Below are positions 6,817 through 20,911 of a stretch of 64,000 nt of DNA, piece by piece; the stretch's first letter is position 1; each line of letters begins with the position of its first letter. The DNA lies in assembly GCA_964440805.1 (NCBI GenBank), contig CAYTTR010000009.1, forward strand, positions 1,658-65,657, given 5' to 3'. The notes beneath the pieces are model-generated. The model had not been told where the DNA came from. It worked only from the letters and a program-made list of their open reading frames with translations, and made no database searches. The position numbers and the translations under genes are program-made. The DNA comes from an uncultured Eubacteriales bacterium (GTDB lineage Bacteria; Acidobacteriota; Aminicenantia; Aminicenantales; Aminicenantaceae).

Positions 6817-8295
6817 TCAATAAGGAGGAGGGAAAAACTTTGGTTTTCGGCCGAAAATCTTTTTATATATTTGAGGATAAGCATCCTTTCCTCCAATTAG
6901 AAGACAGGTAAGAGGAAGTACTTTTTCTGCCTCTGCCCTCATTTTCCCCGCAATATTCCGGATATCCCACTGAGCTGTAGCGTCTTCCCTGAGGCGTGAG
7001 ATATGATACAGTTCTCTGGCATTTACCTTTAAAAGAACCCTTCTACGATGAGCATTAGTCAGGATATATGAGGCTCCATTTTCAAGGCACCGATTGAGTT
7101 CTTCATAAACCTCATCCGTTTTCCGGATAACTTCGAGAAATTGCTTTTCTTCCCCGATTTCCTTGACGGAAGGAGGCACAATTACTCCAAGCGAGGGATC
7201 ATATTCCTGAACCGTCAAGGTAGCCATTCTATGCCTTTTAAGCTGGGCAAAGCAGGCTGCTGAGACCACAAGTTCAAAGGTCAGATCTATAAACTCCCAT
7301 TCCCTAAGAGCCGCATCATAAAACTCCATATGGCGGAAGGCCGTTTTTACGAGATCCATTTTCTCATCACGGCTTATTTTTTTTACCCGATCTAAACACT
7401 CTCCATATGACGCCTTTAAGGCAGAAAGAAGAAGAGCTGCCAGTAGTTTTTCATCTCCATCCGGAGTAAAGTCAATCAGGCGGACATCTTCTCGACTTGG
7501 ATTTTCTCCATGAATTAAATCTTTGGCTTTATTCTTTAAGTCTTCAGGCGTTTGGGCATCAAAATCACTGGCCTCTGTGAAAAGAATAATAGAGGGAGCA
7601 ACTTCCTTGGCCAATTGATATATATTCCGGTTAAGCTCAGCCAGTTCAATTAGTTTTTTGGCTGCCATTCGTCGGATAAAATATTCCAAATTGCGGGCAT
7701 TGAGAGTCATCCCCAATTGCCCCAGAGTAGCAAGACAGACAGCATAGCGGGCATCTTCTTTGGCCCAACCTTCCAAAAGAGAATGTTTTTTTGGATTTTC
7801 AGCCAAGTCTTTATGGCATTGGAAAATAAAAGGCCTGAGTTTCTTATAAAGCCTGAAATAGAGATCGTTTTGCAGCTTAACCGTCTTTAGGAAAATACTT
7901 TCCTTGCCCGCCTTTTTGACTTCTTCCGGCAGGAGAAAATCACCTTGTAAAGTGATGTATCGTTGTGATTTCTCAGTATATGAACCAAGCCTGAATCGCT
8001 CGATTTCTTCAATAGCCAACCGGCTGACACCGATTATATCAAAGTTAAATACTGCATGTTCAGCTACTGAATGATGTCCCATTTTGAAAATTATATTCCG
8101 GTTGGAACGCCTGGCCCTTTCCACTTCTTCTCTGGCAATTTTTCTTAACCGGTCGACCGGCCGGGGATCCCGGGAAATCCGGGCATAAGCAGCAGAAAGG
8201 GTTTCCGGAGTTACATCATCACGTGAAGGAGAATTTTTTTTCAGTTCCTTTAGGACTTGGGCATCAACATTATAACCTGCTAAGATGACTTTCAT
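6817..8295 (-). CDS. thyX: FAD-dependent thymidylate synthase ThyX-like, tandem two-domain form
   Basis: Two ThyX-like halves. Domain 1: HHSVAEHAVFNF...RFRLGSYTEKSQRY (RHR replaced by RFR, Ser retained) and NARNLEYF. Domain 2: RHRMATLTVQEY (RHR retained, Ser lost) and NARELY...AQWDIRNIA. Start chosen at the second ATG (AGAGAGAA SD) rather than track 8334. Confidence 0.55.
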   Translation of the reverse strand: MKVILAGYNVDAQVLKELKKNSPSRDDVTPETLSAAYARISRDPRPVDRLRKIAREEVERARRSNRNIIFKMGHHSVAEHAVFNFDIIGVSRLAIEEIERFRLGSYTEKSQRYITLQGDFLLPEEVKKAGKESIFLKTVKLQNDLYFRLYKKLRPFIFQCHKDLAENPKKHSLLEGWAKEDARYAVCLATLGQLGMTLNARNLEYFIRRMAAKKLIELAELNRNIYQLAKEVAPSIILFTEASDFDAQTPEDLKNKAKDLIHGENPSREDVRLIDFTPDGDEKLLAALLLSALKASYGECLDRVKKISRDEKMDLVKTAFRHMEFYDAALREWEFIDLTFELVVSAACFAQLKRHRMATLTVQEYDPSLGVIVPPSVKEIGEEKQFLEVIRKTDEVYEELNRCLENGASYILTNAHRRRVLLKVNARELYHISRLREDATAQWDIRNIAGKMRAEAEKVLPLTCLLIGGKDAYPQIYKKIFGRKPKFFPPPY

Positions 8296-8432
8296 GGTTC
8301 TCTCTACAATAAAAAGAGGCTGAAAAAATGTCAATATAACAACCTGTTCATTAAATATTTATTTTGAGTTAATCACATTATAGAAAAAACTAAATAAATT
8401 TTTCCTTGATTTTTTATTTTATTAATCCTATA

Positions 8433-8460
8433 TTGACTATACATTCGATACAATTAGAAT
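8433..8460 (+). promoter_or_regulatory. candidate sigma70 promoter for the porin-cytochrome operon (TTGACT-16 bp-TAGAAT)
   Basis: -35 TTGACT at 8433-8438 and -10 TAGAAT at 8455-8460 in an AT-rich 250-bp leader upstream of 8591. Confidence 0.3.
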
Positions 8461-8590
8461 GTTTTTATGAATGGAGCGAGAAAAAATCGTCCGAAAATCT
8501 CATTTTGTCTGCCAATTTCCGTTCTTTTCTTTAAAGAAGATAATGTTAATTTTTTTATTCTAAAGAAAATCCGTTACAAGGAGGTCCGGC

Positions 8591-9457
8591 TTGCCCATTT
8601 TAATTAAATCAGTTAAAAGCAAAAACCCTATTACTTCTTTTTTCCAAATTACCAGCGGGATTATCTTCATCTTTCTAATCATTTTTTTCCTAACAGCCGC
8701 CAGAGTTCCTATCCAAGAAACAACAGTGGAAACATGTTCTGTATGTCATGAGGAAGCAGGACTAAAATTCGCTTCCAATCCCCACTCATCAATTGAAAAC
8801 TGTTCTCTCTGTCACCCTGGGGAAAAAACTCATTTGGAAGAAGGAGGGGGTTCCAATATTTTTGCCTTTAAAGCTGAAGATATACCTAATCAAAAAACTG
8901 AAATATGCCTTCAATGCCACAGTAAAGAAGCGGGCCGATATCAATCAAGTCCTCATGGAAAATCTTCCTATGACTGCCTGACTTGTCACCAGATTCACCA
9001 AGAAAACTCCTTTCCATCGCTTCTAAAATCCGAGGAGACAAAAACATGTTCTTCCTGTCACGGGGAAATCTTGTCCCTTTTTCAGCTTAATGAAAAACAC
9101 CGTCTGCTTGAAGGAATCCTGAGTTGTTCAAGCTGTCACGACCCCCATGGCCCCTCGACCCAGACAATTATGGCCGGATTCAAGCATGAATCATGCCTTA
9201 AATGTCACCGGGATAAAGGAGGTCCATATCTTTACGAACATGGGGCCTCCCGTATAGAAGGGTGCACATCTTGTCACGAAGTTCACGGATCACCCAATCA
9301 GCATCTTTTGATAACCCAAAGTGTGGCTGATCTATGTTTCAGTTGCCATGGGGCTGCTCCTGCCTGGCATTCCCGCTTTGATTCCTATTCTACCAACTGT
9401 ACGGTTTGCCATACGGCAATCCATGGCTCCAATCTCAGTAAGATTTTCTTGAAATAG
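8591..9457 (+). CDS. periplasmic decaheme c-type cytochrome (MtrA/MtoA/OmaB-like)
   Basis: 288 aa; N-terminal hydrophobic anchor or signal sequence; 10 CxxCH motifs (CSVCH, CSLCH, CLQCH, CLTCH, CSSCH x2, CLKCH, CTSCH, CFSCH, CTVCH); first gene of a tightly spaced three-gene cluster. Confidence 0.75.
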   Translation: MPILIKSVKSKNPITSFFQITSGIIFIFLIIFFLTAARVPIQETTVETCSVCHEEAGLKFASNPHSSIENCSLCHPGEKTHLEEGGGSNIFAFKAEDIPNQKTEICLQCHSKEAGRYQSSPHGKSSYDCLTCHQIHQENSFPSLLKSEETKTCSSCHGEILSLFQLNEKHRLLEGILSCSSCHDPHGPSTQTIMAGFKHESCLKCHRDKGGPYLYEHGASRIEGCTSCHEVHGSPNQHLLITQSVADLCFSCHGAAPAWHSRFDSYSTNCTVCHTAIHGSNLSKIFLK

Positions 9458-9467
9458 GAGGAAGAGA

Positions 9468-11330
9468 ATGAAACAAACAAAATATATTCCTCTAATAATG
9501 ATTATCCTCTGGCTGAGCCTGGTTACTCTCGGCTATGCTGAAAACAATGATAAAGATTTCTCCCTGAGCTTCCGCCTTGGATACCGGGCAGTGGATCAAA
9601 GTGGAACCCTCCAAAAATACAAAGAAGATATTAATTTAGAAGATGGAATGAGACTTTTTGATTTTACTTTCAAACTGAGCCCCACAAATGAATTGAGCAA
9701 GCTATTTGACCGCGTGGATATAAATGTCTTTAACTTCGGAGGAGATCCTTTCGAAGCCTTAACCCTGTCTGTCCAAAAATACAGCACTTATCAAGTCCAA
9801 TTCAGCCGGAAAAAATCATCCTATTATTACGCCGACCAACATGAAACAGGAGGAGTCATTTACAATCCTCATACCTTTGATTTCAGGAGAATCACCGACA
9901 GCGGACTCCTCAAGATTTGGCTTCTTCCTTCGGTTAACTTTTATTTGGATTTCAACCGTTATGACAAAAGCGGCGAGAGTATTACTACCCTGGATATTAA
10001 CAGGATAGAATTTGAATTTAACCAGCCGATTCAAGAAAAAAGCAAAGAAATTGCCGTTGGATTGAATGCTCAGCCTTTCAAGGAATTCTCGGTCGTACTT
10101 GAAGAAAGAATACTTGATTATGAGAACTCCAACAGTCTTTTCCTCCCAGGGTATGCTGACGGCGGCGAAGGAGCCAGGTATCCTTCTTCATTGAACTTTT
10201 TCAATCTCAATCAACCATACACCTTGAAAAGTTACAGTCATACCTTGAAAATTTATTCCCAACCAATAAAAAGAATTCTCCTCTCCGGCTCTGCTAAAAT
10301 AACCGACCAGGATCTTGATTTAACCTACCAGGAATCAGCTGATGGAATTAATTACCTGGGAAAATTTTTTGATTATTCTTTTCCGGGAATGGGCAAATTT
10401 CAAAGAAAGATTGGTCTTTATGACCTTGACCTTTCTTTTCTTTTATTTGACCGGCTGGCAATTACCGGCGTAATAAGATACCACGATTTTGAACAAGAAG
10501 GAGAAATGACTGTTTCCGGAGAGAAAAAGACCATGGATTTGAACTATGACACTCTCAGCCTGGAAGGAGGAATTCAGTACCGATTTTCATCTGTCATCGG
10601 TTTGCTTGCCGGTTATCGAAACGAGACCCGCACTCTTGAGGGAGTAGAAACGGTAGATTACGAAGAAAAAACGGTAAGACAGGGATTGTTTGGAAACATA
10701 AAGGTCAGTCCTTCCCGGAAATTTACTCTCAATGCCGATTATCAGTTTGGAACCTATGATCACCCATTTACTCTTGTTTCGCCAGCCGAATTTCACCGCT
10801 TCTCTGCCAAGGCCAGATTAAACCAAAAGCTTGTTTCTTTTTCTGCTTCCTATATTTTCACCAAATCAAAGAACGATATTTGGCAAAACGATTGGTCCTC
10901 CACCAGGCATAACTTTGCCTTTTCAGGAAGCTATAAGGGTAAGAACATTAATGGTTCGGCCAGCTATTCTTATGTTCTGCAAAAACACCAAGGGAACCGA
11001 CAGGTAGACTATCCACCCTCTTTTTCCGGACCAGCAGGAACTTTCCTCTGGGAAATCCTCTATGAAGGAAAATCAAATATCCTTAATGGAAACTTATCCG
11101 CCAAGATGGCCGAAAACTGGAATATAGGAGGATTATTTAATTATTACACTAATAAGGGTTTCTGGGAAATTTCCCGCCTCTGGCTCAAAGGTTACATTGA
11201 ATATCTTTTTGAAGAGGGGTTCTTAGCCCAAATAGGGTATCGGTATGTTGATTTCAAAGAGAAAGACTCAGGATTTAATGATTATTCAGCCAATATTCTG
11301 GAATTATCCTTTGGCTACCGCTGGGAATAA
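9468..11330 (+). CDS. outer-membrane beta-barrel porin-like protein (MtrB/OmbB-like sheath of a porin-cytochrome conduit)
   Basis: 620 aa; signal peptide MKQTKYIPLIMIILWLSLVTLGYA; Y/F/W-rich alternating strands throughout. The 11-nt and 15-nt intergenic gaps, each carrying an SD, couple it to both flanking cytochrome genes. Confidence 0.6.
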   Translation: MKQTKYIPLIMIILWLSLVTLGYAENNDKDFSLSFRLGYRAVDQSGTLQKYKEDINLEDGMRLFDFTFKLSPTNELSKLFDRVDINVFNFGGDPFEALTLSVQKYSTYQVQFSRKKSSYYYADQHETGGVIYNPHTFDFRRITDSGLLKIWLLPSVNFYLDFNRYDKSGESITTLDINRIEFEFNQPIQEKSKEIAVGLNAQPFKEFSVVLEERILDYENSNSLFLPGYADGGEGARYPSSLNFFNLNQPYTLKSYSHTLKIYSQPIKRILLSGSAKITDQDLDLTYQESADGINYLGKFFDYSFPGMGKFQRKIGLYDLDLSFLLFDRLAITGVIRYHDFEQEGEMTVSGEKKTMDLNYDTLSLEGGIQYRFSSVIGLLAGYRNETRTLEGVETVDYEEKTVRQGLFGNIKVSPSRKFTLNADYQFGTYDHPFTLVSPAEFHRFSAKARLNQKLVSFSASYIFTKSKNDIWQNDWSSTRHNFAFSGSYKGKNINGSASYSYVLQKHQGNRQVDYPPSFSGPAGTFLWEILYEGKSNILNGNLSAKMAENWNIGGLFNYYTNKGFWEISRLWLKGYIEYLFEEGFLAQIGYRYVDFKEKDSGFNDYSANILELSFGYRWE

Positions 11331-11345
11331 AAACAGGAGGAGGCT

Positions 11346-13487
11346 ATGAAAAATATACTTAGGATTTTGATGATTACTGTAATATTACCGGGAGCAGTTG
11401 TTTTCATTGCCGGAGCCAAAACGGATAATTTTACCGGACTCCTGTCCCTGGTTTCCCATGCTGAAAAGCTCTGGCAAAGTTCAGGCCATGCCGACTCAAA
11501 AGCAGAAGCCTTTACCCATTGGGATGAGGAAGGTTCTATTCCCACTTCTTGCGCCAAGTGCCACTCCACACCTGGTTTTCAAGATTTTCTGGATAATGGT
11601 GAGGTTAACAGCCCAGCCCCACTGGGCACCACAATAGAATGTGAAGCCTGTCATATAAACAAGGAAACCGGAGCTGTTCGGGAACATACAGCGGTTACTT
11701 TTCCCTCTGGAGCGGTAGTAGAGAACCTGGGACCTGAAGCTCTCTGTATGGAATGCCATCAAGGAAGAGCTTCAAAAAAAGATGTTGACATGACTATCGA
11801 CAGCGCCGGTGTCATTGATCCGGACACCCCTTCTTCTTTGTTAAGGTTTGTCAATATCCACTACTATGCGGCTGCCTCTACCCAGTTGGGAACACTTGTT
11901 GAGGGAGGATATGAATATCAAGGAAAATCATATGATGCCCGGTTTTCTCATTTAACCGGCTATAATGCCTGCATAACTTGTCATAATCCTCATTCTCTTG
12001 AAGTGGAATTGGGTCCTTGCCATACCTGCCATGAAGGAGTGAAAGACCCCAAGGATATCCGTTATTACGGGTCGTTTGTTGATTATGACGGAGACGGTAA
12101 TATCACTGAGGGTATGTTTTACGAAATTGAAGACATTAAAAACATCCTTTATCAGGTAATGCAGAGTTATGCCCGGGAAGTGATTAATATTCCTATTGTT
12201 TACGATTCTCATACTTATCCTTATTTCTTCACCGATGTAAACGGGAATGGAGAGCCTGATCCCGAAGAGTTGAACTACGGAAACCGGTATACTTCTTTTT
12301 CCGCCCGCCTGCTCCGGGCAGCTTATAATTATCAGGTTGCCCAAAAAGATCCCGCGGCTTACGCCCACGGCGGCAAATATATTATCCAGATTCTTTATGA
12401 TTCAATAGAGGATCTTAACCGTCAGCTGGCTTCTCCCCTTTCTTTAAACGTAGCCAGAGTAGATGAAGGTCATTTCGACGGATCATCTGAAGCCTGGAGA
12501 CATTGGGATGAAGACGGCGAAGTTCCAAGTTCATGTTCAAAATGCCATAGTGCCGAAGGCCTTGCCTATTTTCTGGAAAATGGAGATTTGGCTTCCCAGG
12601 AAATTTCCAATGGAATGTTATGTGCCACTTGTCATACAACCCCTCCTCATGTGAGACGAGTCGGTCAAGTGACCTTTCCTTCCGGCGAAGTAGAAGACAT
12701 GGGAGACACTTCCAATCTTTGTCTTCAGTGCCATCAAGGACGGGCTTCAAAATATTCCGTGGAGTCAACTATTGCCTCTTCTCCCGGGCCTTACGGGTTT
12801 ATAAATATCCATTACTTTCCGGCTGCAGCTGTTCTTTTCGGCTCTGAAGTCAAAGGGGGATTTGAGTACGCCGGGAAAATCTACGCCGGCCAGCAAACTT
12901 TCCCCAATCATTTAGGCAAATTCGACACTTGTGTTGAATGTCATATGGGAACAAAAAGTGAAGCCAAGCCTTACGACCATCAAGGGAGACTCCACAATGT
13001 CCAAACACCTAATCCTGAAGATTGTGTCTACTGCCATGGACAGGATATTTCCCAGCCGTATCCGGGCGCAGATCCGGCTAAATTCAGTTTTGAGGGGATC
13101 AGGCCAGCTTCCATTCCCGACTTCGATGGGGATGGAAACCGGAGTGAATCTATTAAAGACGAAATTAAGGGTCTGGAAAAAGAACTATATGCCTGGATAC
13201 AAAAATATGCTTTGGAAAAACTGGGAGCTCCCATTGTTTACGATTCTCACAACTATCCTTATTTCTTCAATGACCTCAATGCCAATGGCAAAGTCGACCC
13301 CGGGGAAAATATTTATCCCAATCAATTTAGGCAATTTAATACCCGGCTTCTCAAAGCAGCCTATAATTTTCAGCTTAGTAAAAAAGAACCCTGCGGATAT
13401 ATTCATAATGCCTGGTATGTGGCTCAGCTCTTGGTGGATTCAATTATCGACTTGGGAGGAGATTCGGCTAAATACTCCTGGCGATAA
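11346..13487 (+). CDS. large decaheme c-type cytochrome with internal tandem duplication (candidate outer-surface MtrC/OmcB-like cytochrome)
   Basis: 713 aa; signal peptide; 10 CxxCH (CAKCH, CEACH, CMECH, CITCH, CHTCH, CSKCH, CATCH, CLQCH, CVECH, CVYCH). The two ~350-aa halves share W(R)HWDE(D/E)G..P.SC.KCHS, VYDSH.YPYFF.D.N.NG..DP.E and RLL(R/K)AAYN(Y/F)Q. Confidence 0.7.
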   Translation: MKNILRILMITVILPGAVVFIAGAKTDNFTGLLSLVSHAEKLWQSSGHADSKAEAFTHWDEEGSIPTSCAKCHSTPGFQDFLDNGEVNSPAPLGTTIECEACHINKETGAVREHTAVTFPSGAVVENLGPEALCMECHQGRASKKDVDMTIDSAGVIDPDTPSSLLRFVNIHYYAAASTQLGTLVEGGYEYQGKSYDARFSHLTGYNACITCHNPHSLEVELGPCHTCHEGVKDPKDIRYYGSFVDYDGDGNITEGMFYEIEDIKNILYQVMQSYAREVINIPIVYDSHTYPYFFTDVNGNGEPDPEELNYGNRYTSFSARLLRAAYNYQVAQKDPAAYAHGGKYIIQILYDSIEDLNRQLASPLSLNVARVDEGHFDGSSEAWRHWDEDGEVPSSCSKCHSAEGLAYFLENGDLASQEISNGMLCATCHTTPPHVRRVGQVTFPSGEVEDMGDTSNLCLQCHQGRASKYSVESTIASSPGPYGFINIHYFPAAAVLFGSEVKGGFEYAGKIYAGQQTFPNHLGKFDTCVECHMGTKSEAKPYDHQGRLHNVQTPNPEDCVYCHGQDISQPYPGADPAKFSFEGIRPASIPDFDGDGNRSESIKDEIKGLEKELYAWIQKYALEKLGAPIVYDSHNYPYFFNDLNANGKVDPGENIYPNQFRQFNTRLLKAAYNFQLSKKEPCGYIHNAWYVAQLLVDSIIDLGGDSAKYSWR

Positions 13488-13502: not shown

Positions 13503-13700
13503 AACCGTGATAACGTGATAAGAGGAAGGGTATGGGATTCGTCCCCCGCTCGATTCCTTAGTGAGGAATCTCGCTCCCATTCGGGCTTCGCTCTCCTCTC
13601 CTCCGGAGAGAAACCATGCCCGCTCTGCCCTCATAGGGGATTCCTCATCCCATACCCTTCCTCTTCTTTAATAATACAATCCCTATCACGGAAATAGGGA
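13503..13700. repeat. GC-rich intergenic element with nested perfect inverted repeats (MITE-like or structured RNA)
   Basis: 19-bp perfect IR AAGAGGAAGGGTATGGGAT (13520-13538) / ATCCCATACCCTTCCTCTT (13647-13665); outer IR CCGTGATA (13505-13512) / TATCACGG (13684-13691); internal hairpin GATTCCTTAGTGAGGAATC. Confidence 0.5.
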
Positions 13701-19339: not shown

Positions 19340-20911
19340 ATGAGAACAAAAAAGAGAGCCAATTCATCCCTCTGGGTTATGCTGATATTCTTTTGTCTTG
19401 CCGGAATATGCTATCTCTTTCCTCAAGAGTCTAACCAAGACTATGAAAAAATAACCAGTGATGATTGCAGCGGATGCCATGAGAAAAGTAAACATGGAAC
19501 AGACTTCACACAAGACCTCTCCCATTCTATCCATGAAGGATTTGAATGCTTAGACTGCCATCTCGATAAGAAAACCTTCCCTCATCAAAAAATACCTGAT
19601 TTCGAATTACCTTGCCATAGCTGCGCTTCCTGTCATGAAGAAGAAGCCCAAACATATAAAATTCACGGATGAGCTTTGGTAGCCGAATGTCAAGATGCGC
19701 CGTCTTGTGCAGGCTGTCACGGTGAGCTGGTAAGCCGAGGTCAGACAGATGCTCCGGTATGCACTGACTGCCATGGAGAACACGGCATCTTTTCTCCTAA
19801 TGATCCCCGCTCACCAGTTTCCAGCATCAGATTGGCTGAAGCCACCTGTGCCCCCTGTCATGAATCCGTCAGGCTCTCGGAAAAGTACGGCCTTCCCCTG
19901 GGGCGTTTGGCCTCATTTATAGACAGTTACCACGGCCTGAAAACAAAAGCCGGAGATCAATATGTGGCCAATTGTGCTTCCTGCCACGGAGTTCATAAAA
20001 TACTGCCCAGTTCTGATCCGGAGTCCACAATCCATCCCGCTAATCTTCAAAAAACTTGCGGCGAGTGTCATTCCGGGATTTCTGCTGAATTGGCCCAATC
20101 CCCCATTCACGGCCTGGGAGGTGAAGGCCTCCAGACCAAAGCTGCCAGCATTGTTCAGAATATCTATATTGCCGCCATTATTATTATTATCGGACTAATG
20201 GGCATCCATTGGCTTATCGACCTTATCAGGCAGATAATTTTGGTTGCCCGAAAAAAACCTCAGGTCAGGCGGATGAATGCCAATGAACTCTGGCAACATA
20301 CCCTTCTCATGCTCAGTTTTATTGTCCTGGTTGTCACCGGCTTCTCTCTCAGGTTTGATCAGGCCTGGATTACACGGTTTTTCTTCGGCTGGGAAGGCGG
20401 TTTTAAACTGAGAGGAACCATCCACAGAGTGGCTTCGGTTGTTCTCATCGTGACTACTATATGGCACGTTATTTACCTTTTCTCCAGGAGAGGCCGGAGA
20501 TTTTTTGTCGATATGTGGCCCCGCTTAGGTGATTTCCGCGACTTTATTCAGAAAATCTTGTTTAATCTGGGACTTTCCAAAAAAGAACCCCGGTTCGGGA
20601 GATTCAGTTATATCGAGAAAGCTGAGTATTGGGCTCTTATCTGGGGAAATGCAGTGATGATAGTAACCGGAATACTTCTTTGGTTTGACAATTATTTTGT
20701 CAGAATTTTCCCCAAAGGAGTGCTTGATGTTTCTTTGGTCATTCATTATTACGAAGCCATTCTGGCTTCTCTTGCCATTTTAATCTGGCATCTGTACTCT
20801 ACCGTCTTTAATCCCCGCGTCTATCCCATGAATCCTTCATGGCTTACCGGCAAAATGCCGGAAGACATGTTTATTCACGAACACCAAGCAGTCAAAAAAG
20901 AAGAGATTTAA
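19340..20911 (+). CDS. inner-membrane multiheme cytochrome c fused to diheme cytochrome b (Cbc/CbcL-like quinol oxidoreductase), interrupted by one in-frame TGA at 19670-19672
   Basis: Track ORFs 19340..19672 and 19676..20911 are in the same frame, separated by TGA plus one codon. Only the first ORF has a signal peptide. There are 3+5 CxxCH motifs, then five His-bearing TM helices of PF01292 type (HydC/FdnI-like). Confidence 0.6.

Follow-up and report, generated by a model that had tools for sequence, protein, structure and literature searches.

The stretch of DNA analysed here, referred to as the window, comprises 64,000 nucleotides of contig CAYTTR010000009.1 (assembly GCA_964440805.1) from an uncultured bacterium of the Aminicenantia (Acidobacteriota), and it carries three co-directional genes, named A, B, and C in this work, that are candidates for encoding an extracellular electron-transfer conduit (Table 1). 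An earlier reading of these letters without database searches, called the sequence-only reading below, had described two multihaem cytochromes flanking a β-barrel protein and had proposed a porin-cytochrome conduit following the logic of the Mtr systems. The gene layout that it gave was confirmed with regard to the lengths of the three products (288, 620, and 713 amino acids), the ten CxxCH motifs in A and in C, and the Shine-Dalgarno site within each intergenic gap, which reads AGGAGG. The gap between B and C is 15 nt, as described, whereas the gap between A and B measures 10 nt and not 11. A further AGGAGG lies 6 nt ahead of the TTG start codon of gene A, and hydrophobic signal-like segments are found at the N-termini of all three products. 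The cluster is flanked by housekeeping genes, namely those for TyrRS, a double-domain ThyX, an M24 peptidase, rubrerythrin, RtcB, archease, and NaPRTase, and A, B, and C therefore constitute one self-contained operon.

Table 1 Features of the conduit locus and its surroundings, in window coordinates.
Feature	Position	Strand	Description
Promoter-like site TTGACT-16 nt-TAGAAT	8433-8460	+	Upstream of gene A; from a consensus scan, weak evidence
Gene A	8591-9457	+	TTG start, 288 aa, 10 CxxCH; decahaem c-type cytochrome of the MtrA/DmsE family, as judged from sequence
Gene B	9468-11330	+	620 aa, 0 CxxCH, free of Cys, signal peptide; predicted MtrB-like outer-membrane β-barrel
Gene C	11346-13487	+	713 aa, 10 CxxCH (5+5); tandem modules, pentahaem plus helical, of the NrfA/OcwA fold
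146-nt structured element	13520-13665	+	Directly 3' of gene C; inverted repeat with a perfect closing stem of 19 bp
CbcL-like multihaem and cytochrome b gene	19340-20911	+	PF01292 plus CxxCH (3+5); disrupted

The product of gene A is, on the evidence of its sequence, a divergent but unmistakable MtrA-family cytochrome. Its CxxCH motifs follow each other at intervals of 21-35 residues, and 12 further histidines bring the total to 22. With ten such motifs in a chain of about 300 residues, a capacity for bis-His ligation, and a signal peptide, it displays the traits of MtrA, DmsE, MtoA, and PioA. Against TIGR03508, the model for decahaem cytochromes of the DmsE/MtrA type, it scored 162.6 bits (curated cutoff, 192.2) along profile positions 3-257 of 258, so that it would be classed as a relative rather than as a curated member of this family. 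It also matched PF09699 with 94 bits, and a phmmer comparison with chain A of PDB entry 6R2Q, which is the 333-residue MtrA despite a wrong label in the file, gave an E value of 1.9e-23. Matches to models named after Geobacter proteins were weak (GSU2203, 142 bits with a cutoff of 325; GSU2204, 22 bits).

Evidence that gene B encodes the barrel of such a system comes from its predicted structure. The AlphaFold2 model is confident (predicted local distance difference test score of 82) and, as the sequence-only reading had anticipated, all-β; it has about 26-28 strands, and a Foldseek search placed MtrB (6r2q_B) first among solved structures, with an E value of 2.3e-16 and template-modelling (TM) scores of 0.66/0.63; the next matches were 22-strand TonB-dependent receptors at a TM score of about 0.44. 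Within the family of B homologues, 10 of 67 members matched PF11854 (MtrB_PioB; best E value, 9.8e-10), and one homologue with 52% identity to B carries the NCBI name 'MtrB/PioB family'. Gene A lies immediately upstream of B in every locus that bears a B gene and has flanking sequence. Pfam matches of B itself were generic and below threshold (OMP_b-brl, DUF2490), and a search of the PDB sequences with the single B sequence gave no match. On the strength of the model, we regard the B product as an MtrB-like barrel at the level of the fold that fails the MtrB sequence models. The statement in the sequence-only reading that the genes are not obviously orthologous to any known system can thus not be upheld for A and B, which are detectably related to MtrA and MtrB; the conduit candidate itself gains from this relationship and from the conservation of the operon described below.

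Gene C differs from what had been expected. The sequence-only reading had treated it as the counterpart of MtrC, and this assignment was rejected, as we found no similarity of C to MtrC, MtrF, or OmcA in sequence or fold: models for MtrC, OmcA, MtrF, and UndA (TIGR03507; PF22112/PF22113) gave no family match, no MtrC-like fold was seen, and there is no lipobox. Its Pfam matches were limited to generic c3/c7 models. In the profile searches that had been suggested as a check, neither an MtrB model for B nor an MtrC model for C was matched. The CxxCH motifs of C are located at residues 69/99/134/209/225 and 397/426/459/529/560, and the two halves of the protein are 40% identical to each other (E value, 4e-80); C therefore consists of one module of about 340 residues that has been duplicated in tandem.

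The fold of this module is of the NrfA/OcwA type. Searches against solved structures with the single C sequence and with a full-length family profile yielded nothing useful; a profile built from 42 single modules reached OcwA (E value, 8.6e-4) and an NrfA (E value, 1.9e-3). In this alignment the first haem motif of the module corresponds to C281xxCH of OcwA, which is haem 5 by motif order and the equivalent of NrfA haem 1. OcwA from Thermincola is the only significant solved relative of C, followed by NrfA nitrite reductases, and an S-layer cytochrome of Carboxydothermus was another structural match. C also shows a trait of the OcwA type, an NrfA-like haem core combined with a helical bundle. 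CxxCH is the only kind of haem motif among its ten; CxxCK and His-His motifs are absent, and no NrfA model of Pfam or NCBIfam was matched. In each of the two modules, haem 3 is followed by an invariant CH-Q-G-R, and each module has exactly five invariant histidines outside the haem motifs (H48, H172, H202, H216, and H341, and their second-module equivalents). To judge from the sequences, this number fits bis-His ligation of all haems and the NrfA pattern of four distal ligands plus a pocket histidine alike. Each helical domain further contains two motifs of the DxDxDG type, DYDGDGN and DxNxNGxxD, which look like calcium-binding loops. The sequence-only reading had named similarity of the cytochromes to nitrite/hydroxylamine-type reductases with catalytic-site ligands as evidence that would speak against its proposal, and what we found is divided in this respect: C does have the NrfA/OcwA fold, but its best match is OcwA, which serves as a terminal reductase in extracellular electron transfer, and CxxCK, the catalytic signature of NrfA, is missing.

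To learn about the distribution of the operon, loci with a relative of gene B were collected from one genome per species, which gave about 80 loci. Proteins identical to B and C are recorded from a single NCBI contig of 77 kb, and homologues at 45-70% identity were found overwhelmingly in metagenome-assembled genomes of Candidatus Aminicenantes (OP8; Aminicenantia, Acidobacteriota). Among the loci of the Aminicenantes type (L002-L066, L069-L071, and L077), 49 have 2.4 kb or more of sequence left on the downstream side of B, and 47 of these 49 show the same order of a ten-haem A, B, and a full-length, two-module C. The C proteins of these 47 loci have ten haems each, except for one with nine (L063). 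The two loci that depart from the order have a single five-haem module (L003) or a split C (L014). The synteny in related genomes that the sequence-only reading had suggested as a check is thus present. Its observation of the A-B-C order also stands, although the order is not new, as it is already present in mtrDEF and in the mtr clusters of Halieaceae (PMC8805035). The occurrence of ten haem motifs in 288 residues and of the three-gene order in dozens of species is far beyond chance.

The complete Aminicenantes genome CP070825.1 (L001/L003) encodes, after A and B, a protein of about 250-300 residues with five haems (9885-10781 in L003), which lacks a second module and is a pseudogene or else a C that has been truncated. 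The genes for a histidine kinase, a sigma-54 response regulator, and an Rrf2 regulator are found upstream in this genome and are not present in the window.

More distant loci contain A and B without C and belong to other Acidobacteriota, the Thermoanaerobaculia, one Calditrichaceae genome, and one Gemmatimonadota genome. In one locus (L057, 5834-12456), the A-B pair is flanked by an eight-haem lipoprotein upstream and by proteins with 17 and four haems downstream. This arrangement represents a natural swapping of partners on the same A-B core and fits the idea of a modular MtrAB core, which has been described as taking up different outer cytochromes (PMC8805035).

The C module itself belongs to a large, uncharacterised, modular cytochrome family, which at 50% identity comprises 1417 clusters at E <= 1e-3 and 802 clusters at E <= 1e-10. 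It occurs in proteins of one, two, and three modules with 5, 10, and 15 haems, respectively (homologues including P0155, P0172, and P0226; loci including L081, 8001-11204, and L086, 7001-10861). The three-module relatives have a lipobox cysteine at their start and long low-complexity linkers, and one of them is encoded in a cluster with NrfD, ferredoxin, and multihaem genes that lacks a barrel. Another family member, of 1286 residues, carries Big_2 Ig-like domains. Single-module relatives, for example from Limimaricola, bear the NCBI name 'polyheme membrane-associated cytochrome C'. In the cultured alphaproteobacterium Limimaricola soesokkakensis (L083/L084, 6001-7089), the gene for a 362-residue single-module relative divergently adjoins the nqr (Na+-NQR) operon. 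Outside the Aminicenantes, a two-module homologue stands alone without an A-B pair, and the gene neighbourhoods of C homologues revealed no consistent partner. The C module is a general extracytoplasmic, often surface-tethered, electron-transfer unit, and among the loci compared its linkage to MtrAB is specific to the Aminicenantes.

Our results make it probable that the operon encodes an extracellular electron-transfer conduit with an MtrAB core, in which C takes the place of MtrC as a swapped outer cytochrome of another type. In such a conduit, A would be exported to the periplasm and would thread through the barrel of about 26 strands formed by B, and the haems would thereby form an insulated wire that spans the outer membrane. 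C would be located outside the cell, docked on the outer end of A, and would hand electrons on to acceptors that are large or insoluble, such as Fe(III) and Mn(IV) minerals, humics, or partner cells. The flow of electrons would be outward, from a donor in the inner membrane. Most likely, the MtrC-type surface cytochrome has been replaced by the type that Gram-positive metal reducers use at their surface. The surface features seen in the C family, that is, the lipobox of the three-module forms and the Big_2 domains of one member, and the surface location of OcwA count in favour of a conduit with C on the outside. Further points in its favour are the absence of CxxCK, the five invariant histidines per module, which would suffice for bis-His ligation of all C haems, and the tight packing of the three genes with Shine-Dalgarno sites in both gaps.

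Several observations weigh against this interpretation. The signal peptide of C is plain, with neither a lipobox nor a recognisable surface-sorting signal, no type II secretion genes were seen within the window, and the NrfA fold is typical of periplasmic enzymes. C homologues outside the Aminicenantes occur without A and B, so the module is not tied to the conduit. The score of gene A stays under the curated cutoff of TIGR03508. Gene B did not match PF11854 or TIGR03509 at E <= 1, and a profile of 67 B-family sequences found no barrel by sequence among the solved structures, 6R2Q_B included. The sole candidate quinol dehydrogenase near the operon is disrupted, as described below, and nothing in the locus data indicates the direction of electron flow.

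Among the alternatives, the one that survives best, which we nevertheless consider rather unlikely, is a system similar to MtoAB or PioAB, in which A and B form a conduit and C would stay in the periplasm, where it would store electrons as a large reservoir or carry them between A and the inner membrane; in this case the flow may be directed inward, with Fe(II), reduced humics, or a syntrophic partner as the source. A periplasmic C would agree with the lack of any secretion signal beyond a Sec signal peptide, with the usual location of NrfA-fold proteins in the periplasm, and with the distant relatives that retain A and B alone. It is also established that the genes after A and B in mtoAB and pioABC encode periplasmic carriers (discussed in PMC8805035). 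However, MtrA-type proteins already extend into the periplasm and are normally fed by small carriers, and with 713 residues and ten haems C is far larger than the known periplasmic partners MtoD, PioC, and CctA. Moreover, its nearest solved relatives and several members of its family are surface proteins.

An improbable second alternative starts from the fold of C and supposes a system similar to DmsEFAB, in which A and B would feed a catalytic NrfA-type C with an open, five-coordinate haem 1 in each module. Reduction would take place at the cell surface or in the periplasm, and the soluble or colloidal substrate could be nitrite, hydroxylamine, sulfite, polysulfide, or a metal chelate. The haem spacing and fold of the module do follow NrfA, its first haem motif aligns with the haem of OcwA that is the five-coordinate counterpart of NrfA haem 1, and the five invariant histidines per module can be read as the NrfA arrangement. 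The invariant CH-Q-G-R after haem 3 also counts in favour, as does the weak activity on nitrite and hydroxylamine of OcwA, which has been characterised as a terminal reductase of the cell surface and has an NrfA-family fold with two five-coordinate haems (PMC6703420). Against a catalytic role, C has neither CxxCK nor the distal His-His motif of OcwA, the tyrosine that follows haem 3 in NrfA seems to be absent, and the NrfA models are not matched. A related proposal, in which the MtrAB-type core would supply not a simple electron-transfer cytochrome but a tandem NrfA-like enzyme that is exposed at the surface and has two of its haem sites open, we regard as a long shot. If true, it would imply an extracellular multi-electron reduction of nitrogen or sulfur oxyanions or of metal chelates, which could also run in reverse and oxidise extracellular substrates, and it would amount to an outer-membrane-spanning respiratory system analogous to DmsEFAB that is built from multihaem catalysis.

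That there is no conduit at all, B being a large porin of the usual kind or a channel for a substrate, and A and C being unrelated periplasmic redox proteins that share an operon, is very improbable and already disfavoured, since the generic sub-threshold matches of B and its failure to match an MtrB model, which would suit this explanation, are opposed by MtrB as its top structural match, well separated from all others, by the PF11854 matches in part of its family, and by the homologous A-B pairing across Aminicenantes, other Acidobacteriota, Calditrichia, and Gemmatimonadota.

The sequence-only reading had pointed to a Cbc-type quinol oxidase gene at 19.3 kb as completing a route from the inner membrane to the cell surface. 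Such a complete route is not supported in the window, where an in-frame TGA (19670-19672) interrupts this CbcL-like gene. The domain composition of the CbcL type is present (PF01292 together with CxxCH motifs), and it is not encoded as a single polypeptide. Orthologues (L070, 15197-17128; L014, 11561-13462) are single open reading frames (ORFs) of 633-643 residues with 11 haems, and relative to them the copy in the window is about 120 residues shorter and has lost three haems. Recoding of the TGA, for instance as selenocysteine, was considered and rejected: the orthologues have arginine or threonine, not cysteine, at this position, and TGA ends 22 of the 47 long ORFs of the window, more than any other stop codon, which makes recoding unlikely. 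The gene is probably a pseudogene, a truncated variant, or the result of an assembly error, with a pseudogene or an assembly error being favoured. Only a few loci have a related gene at a distance of 8 kb or less from the cluster. The CbcL-like gene may be an entry point on the quinol side.

The start coordinate of 8433 that the sequence-only reading gave for the cluster coincides with the start of the promoter-like site upstream of gene A; in the consensus scan of the region, the count of such sites was not above the shuffled expectation. Downstream of gene C, the structured element has a fold energy of -71.5 kcal/mol (z = -6.3) with branched internal hairpins, and the arms of its closing stem (AAGAGGAAGGGTATGGGAT / ATCCCATACCCTTCCTCTT) pair perfectly over 19 bp. 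An Rfam search of the operon together with this hairpin gave chance-level matches only and no family for the element, and no second copy of the arms was detected in the window or in 84 related loci. The element may be a transcript-end structure. On the other side, the divergently oriented neighbour of gene A (6817-8334, minus strand) encodes a 505-residue protein with two matches to Thy1 (ThyX) and represents a duplicated or fused flavin-dependent thymidylate synthase.

The operon is a well-supported candidate for an extracellular electron-transfer conduit. The uncultured Aminicenantes (OP8), which most descriptions treat as fermenters, reach high abundance in the deep subsurface, in aquifers, and in anoxic sediments. 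Surveys based on gene catalogues have begun to count the Aminicenantia as putative iron reducers and leave the machinery undescribed (e.g. PMC12740246), and FeGenie detected homologues of cyc2 or sulfocyanin in one genome of the Aminicenantes (PMC7005843). In the literature found, Aminicenantes with MtrA, MtrB, or multihaem cytochromes appear in survey-level mentions only, and there is no description of this Aminicenantes operon or of a tandem-pentahaem protein of the OcwA/NrfA fold as a partner of MtrAB. The locus presented here provides concrete candidate machinery in the form of an operon that occurs throughout the phylum, whose MtrAB core is divergent and whose putative outer cytochrome has the OcwA/NrfA fold and is not of the MtrC type. 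If the proposed function is correct, it would extend the idea of a modular MtrAB core (PMC8805035) to a type of partner so far characterised only at Gram-positive surfaces, would explain why searches based on MtrC have missed the Aminicenantes, and would offer a set of marker genes for the respiration of minerals or humics in these bacteria.

Among known systems, the operon resembles MtrCAB and MtrDEF of Shewanella (6R2Q) in its decahaem wire, its barrel of about 26 strands, and its third, ten-haem cytochrome encoded in the same operon, and with mtrDEF it also shares the order of the genes. It differs from them in that the A protein, with 288 residues, is shorter than the 333-residue MtrA, in that gene B is too divergent for the MtrB models, and in that C consists of two modules of the NrfA/OcwA type, whereas MtrC, MtrF, and OmcA have a lipobox and a four-domain fold of two pentahaem domains and two flavin-binding domains of β-barrel structure. 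The Fe(II)-oxidation conduits MtoAB and PioAB(C) likewise have an A-B core with A first and occur in organisms without MtrC, and the distant relatives of the locus that have A and B only look like this type; the additional genes of these conduits, however, encode the small periplasmic carriers MtoD and PioC and not a 713-residue decahaem protein. The porin-cytochrome (Pcc) cluster OmaB-OmbB-OmcB and the Ext clusters of Geobacter follow a similar logic, each combining the gene for a barrel with those for two multihaem proteins, one periplasmic and one outer. The Pcc systems combine an octahaem Oma with a smaller barrel that is not known to be related to MtrAB, and membership of the operon in this group was rejected, gene A being a decahaem MtrA homologue.

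Sequence-divergent porin-cytochrome clusters with MtrA-like and OcwA-like ('OwcA-like') cytochromes have been recognised by means of structure models in peat Acidobacteriota (Terriglobia) and Verrucomicrobiota (Fiorito et al. 2026, preprint, 10.64898/2026.05.27.727921). They differ from the operon described here in that neither the Aminicenantia nor a tandem-pentahaem partner is mentioned. The classical NrfA nitrite reductases have an active-site haem bound by CxxCK, whereas C has CxxCH throughout, is duplicated in tandem, and matches no NrfA model; what it has in common with them is limited to the fold and a weak similarity at the profile level. Defining features of NrfA are a catalytic triad of Arg, Tyr, and His and a Ca site. 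NrfA is encoded in operons with NrfH or NrfBCD, and C in an operon with a putative outer-membrane conduit. OcwA of Thermincola potens (6I5B) has nine haems distributed over a tetrahaem unit similar to c554 and a pentahaem unit similar to NrfA, compared with twice five haems in C. Two of the OcwA haems are five-coordinate with distal His-His motifs and one has His-Met ligation, while C is devoid of the His-His motif. Finally, the host of OcwA is Gram-positive and has no outer-membrane barrel, whereas in the Aminicenantes a cytochrome of this fold appears to be coupled to an MtrAB-type pair in a diderm bacterium.

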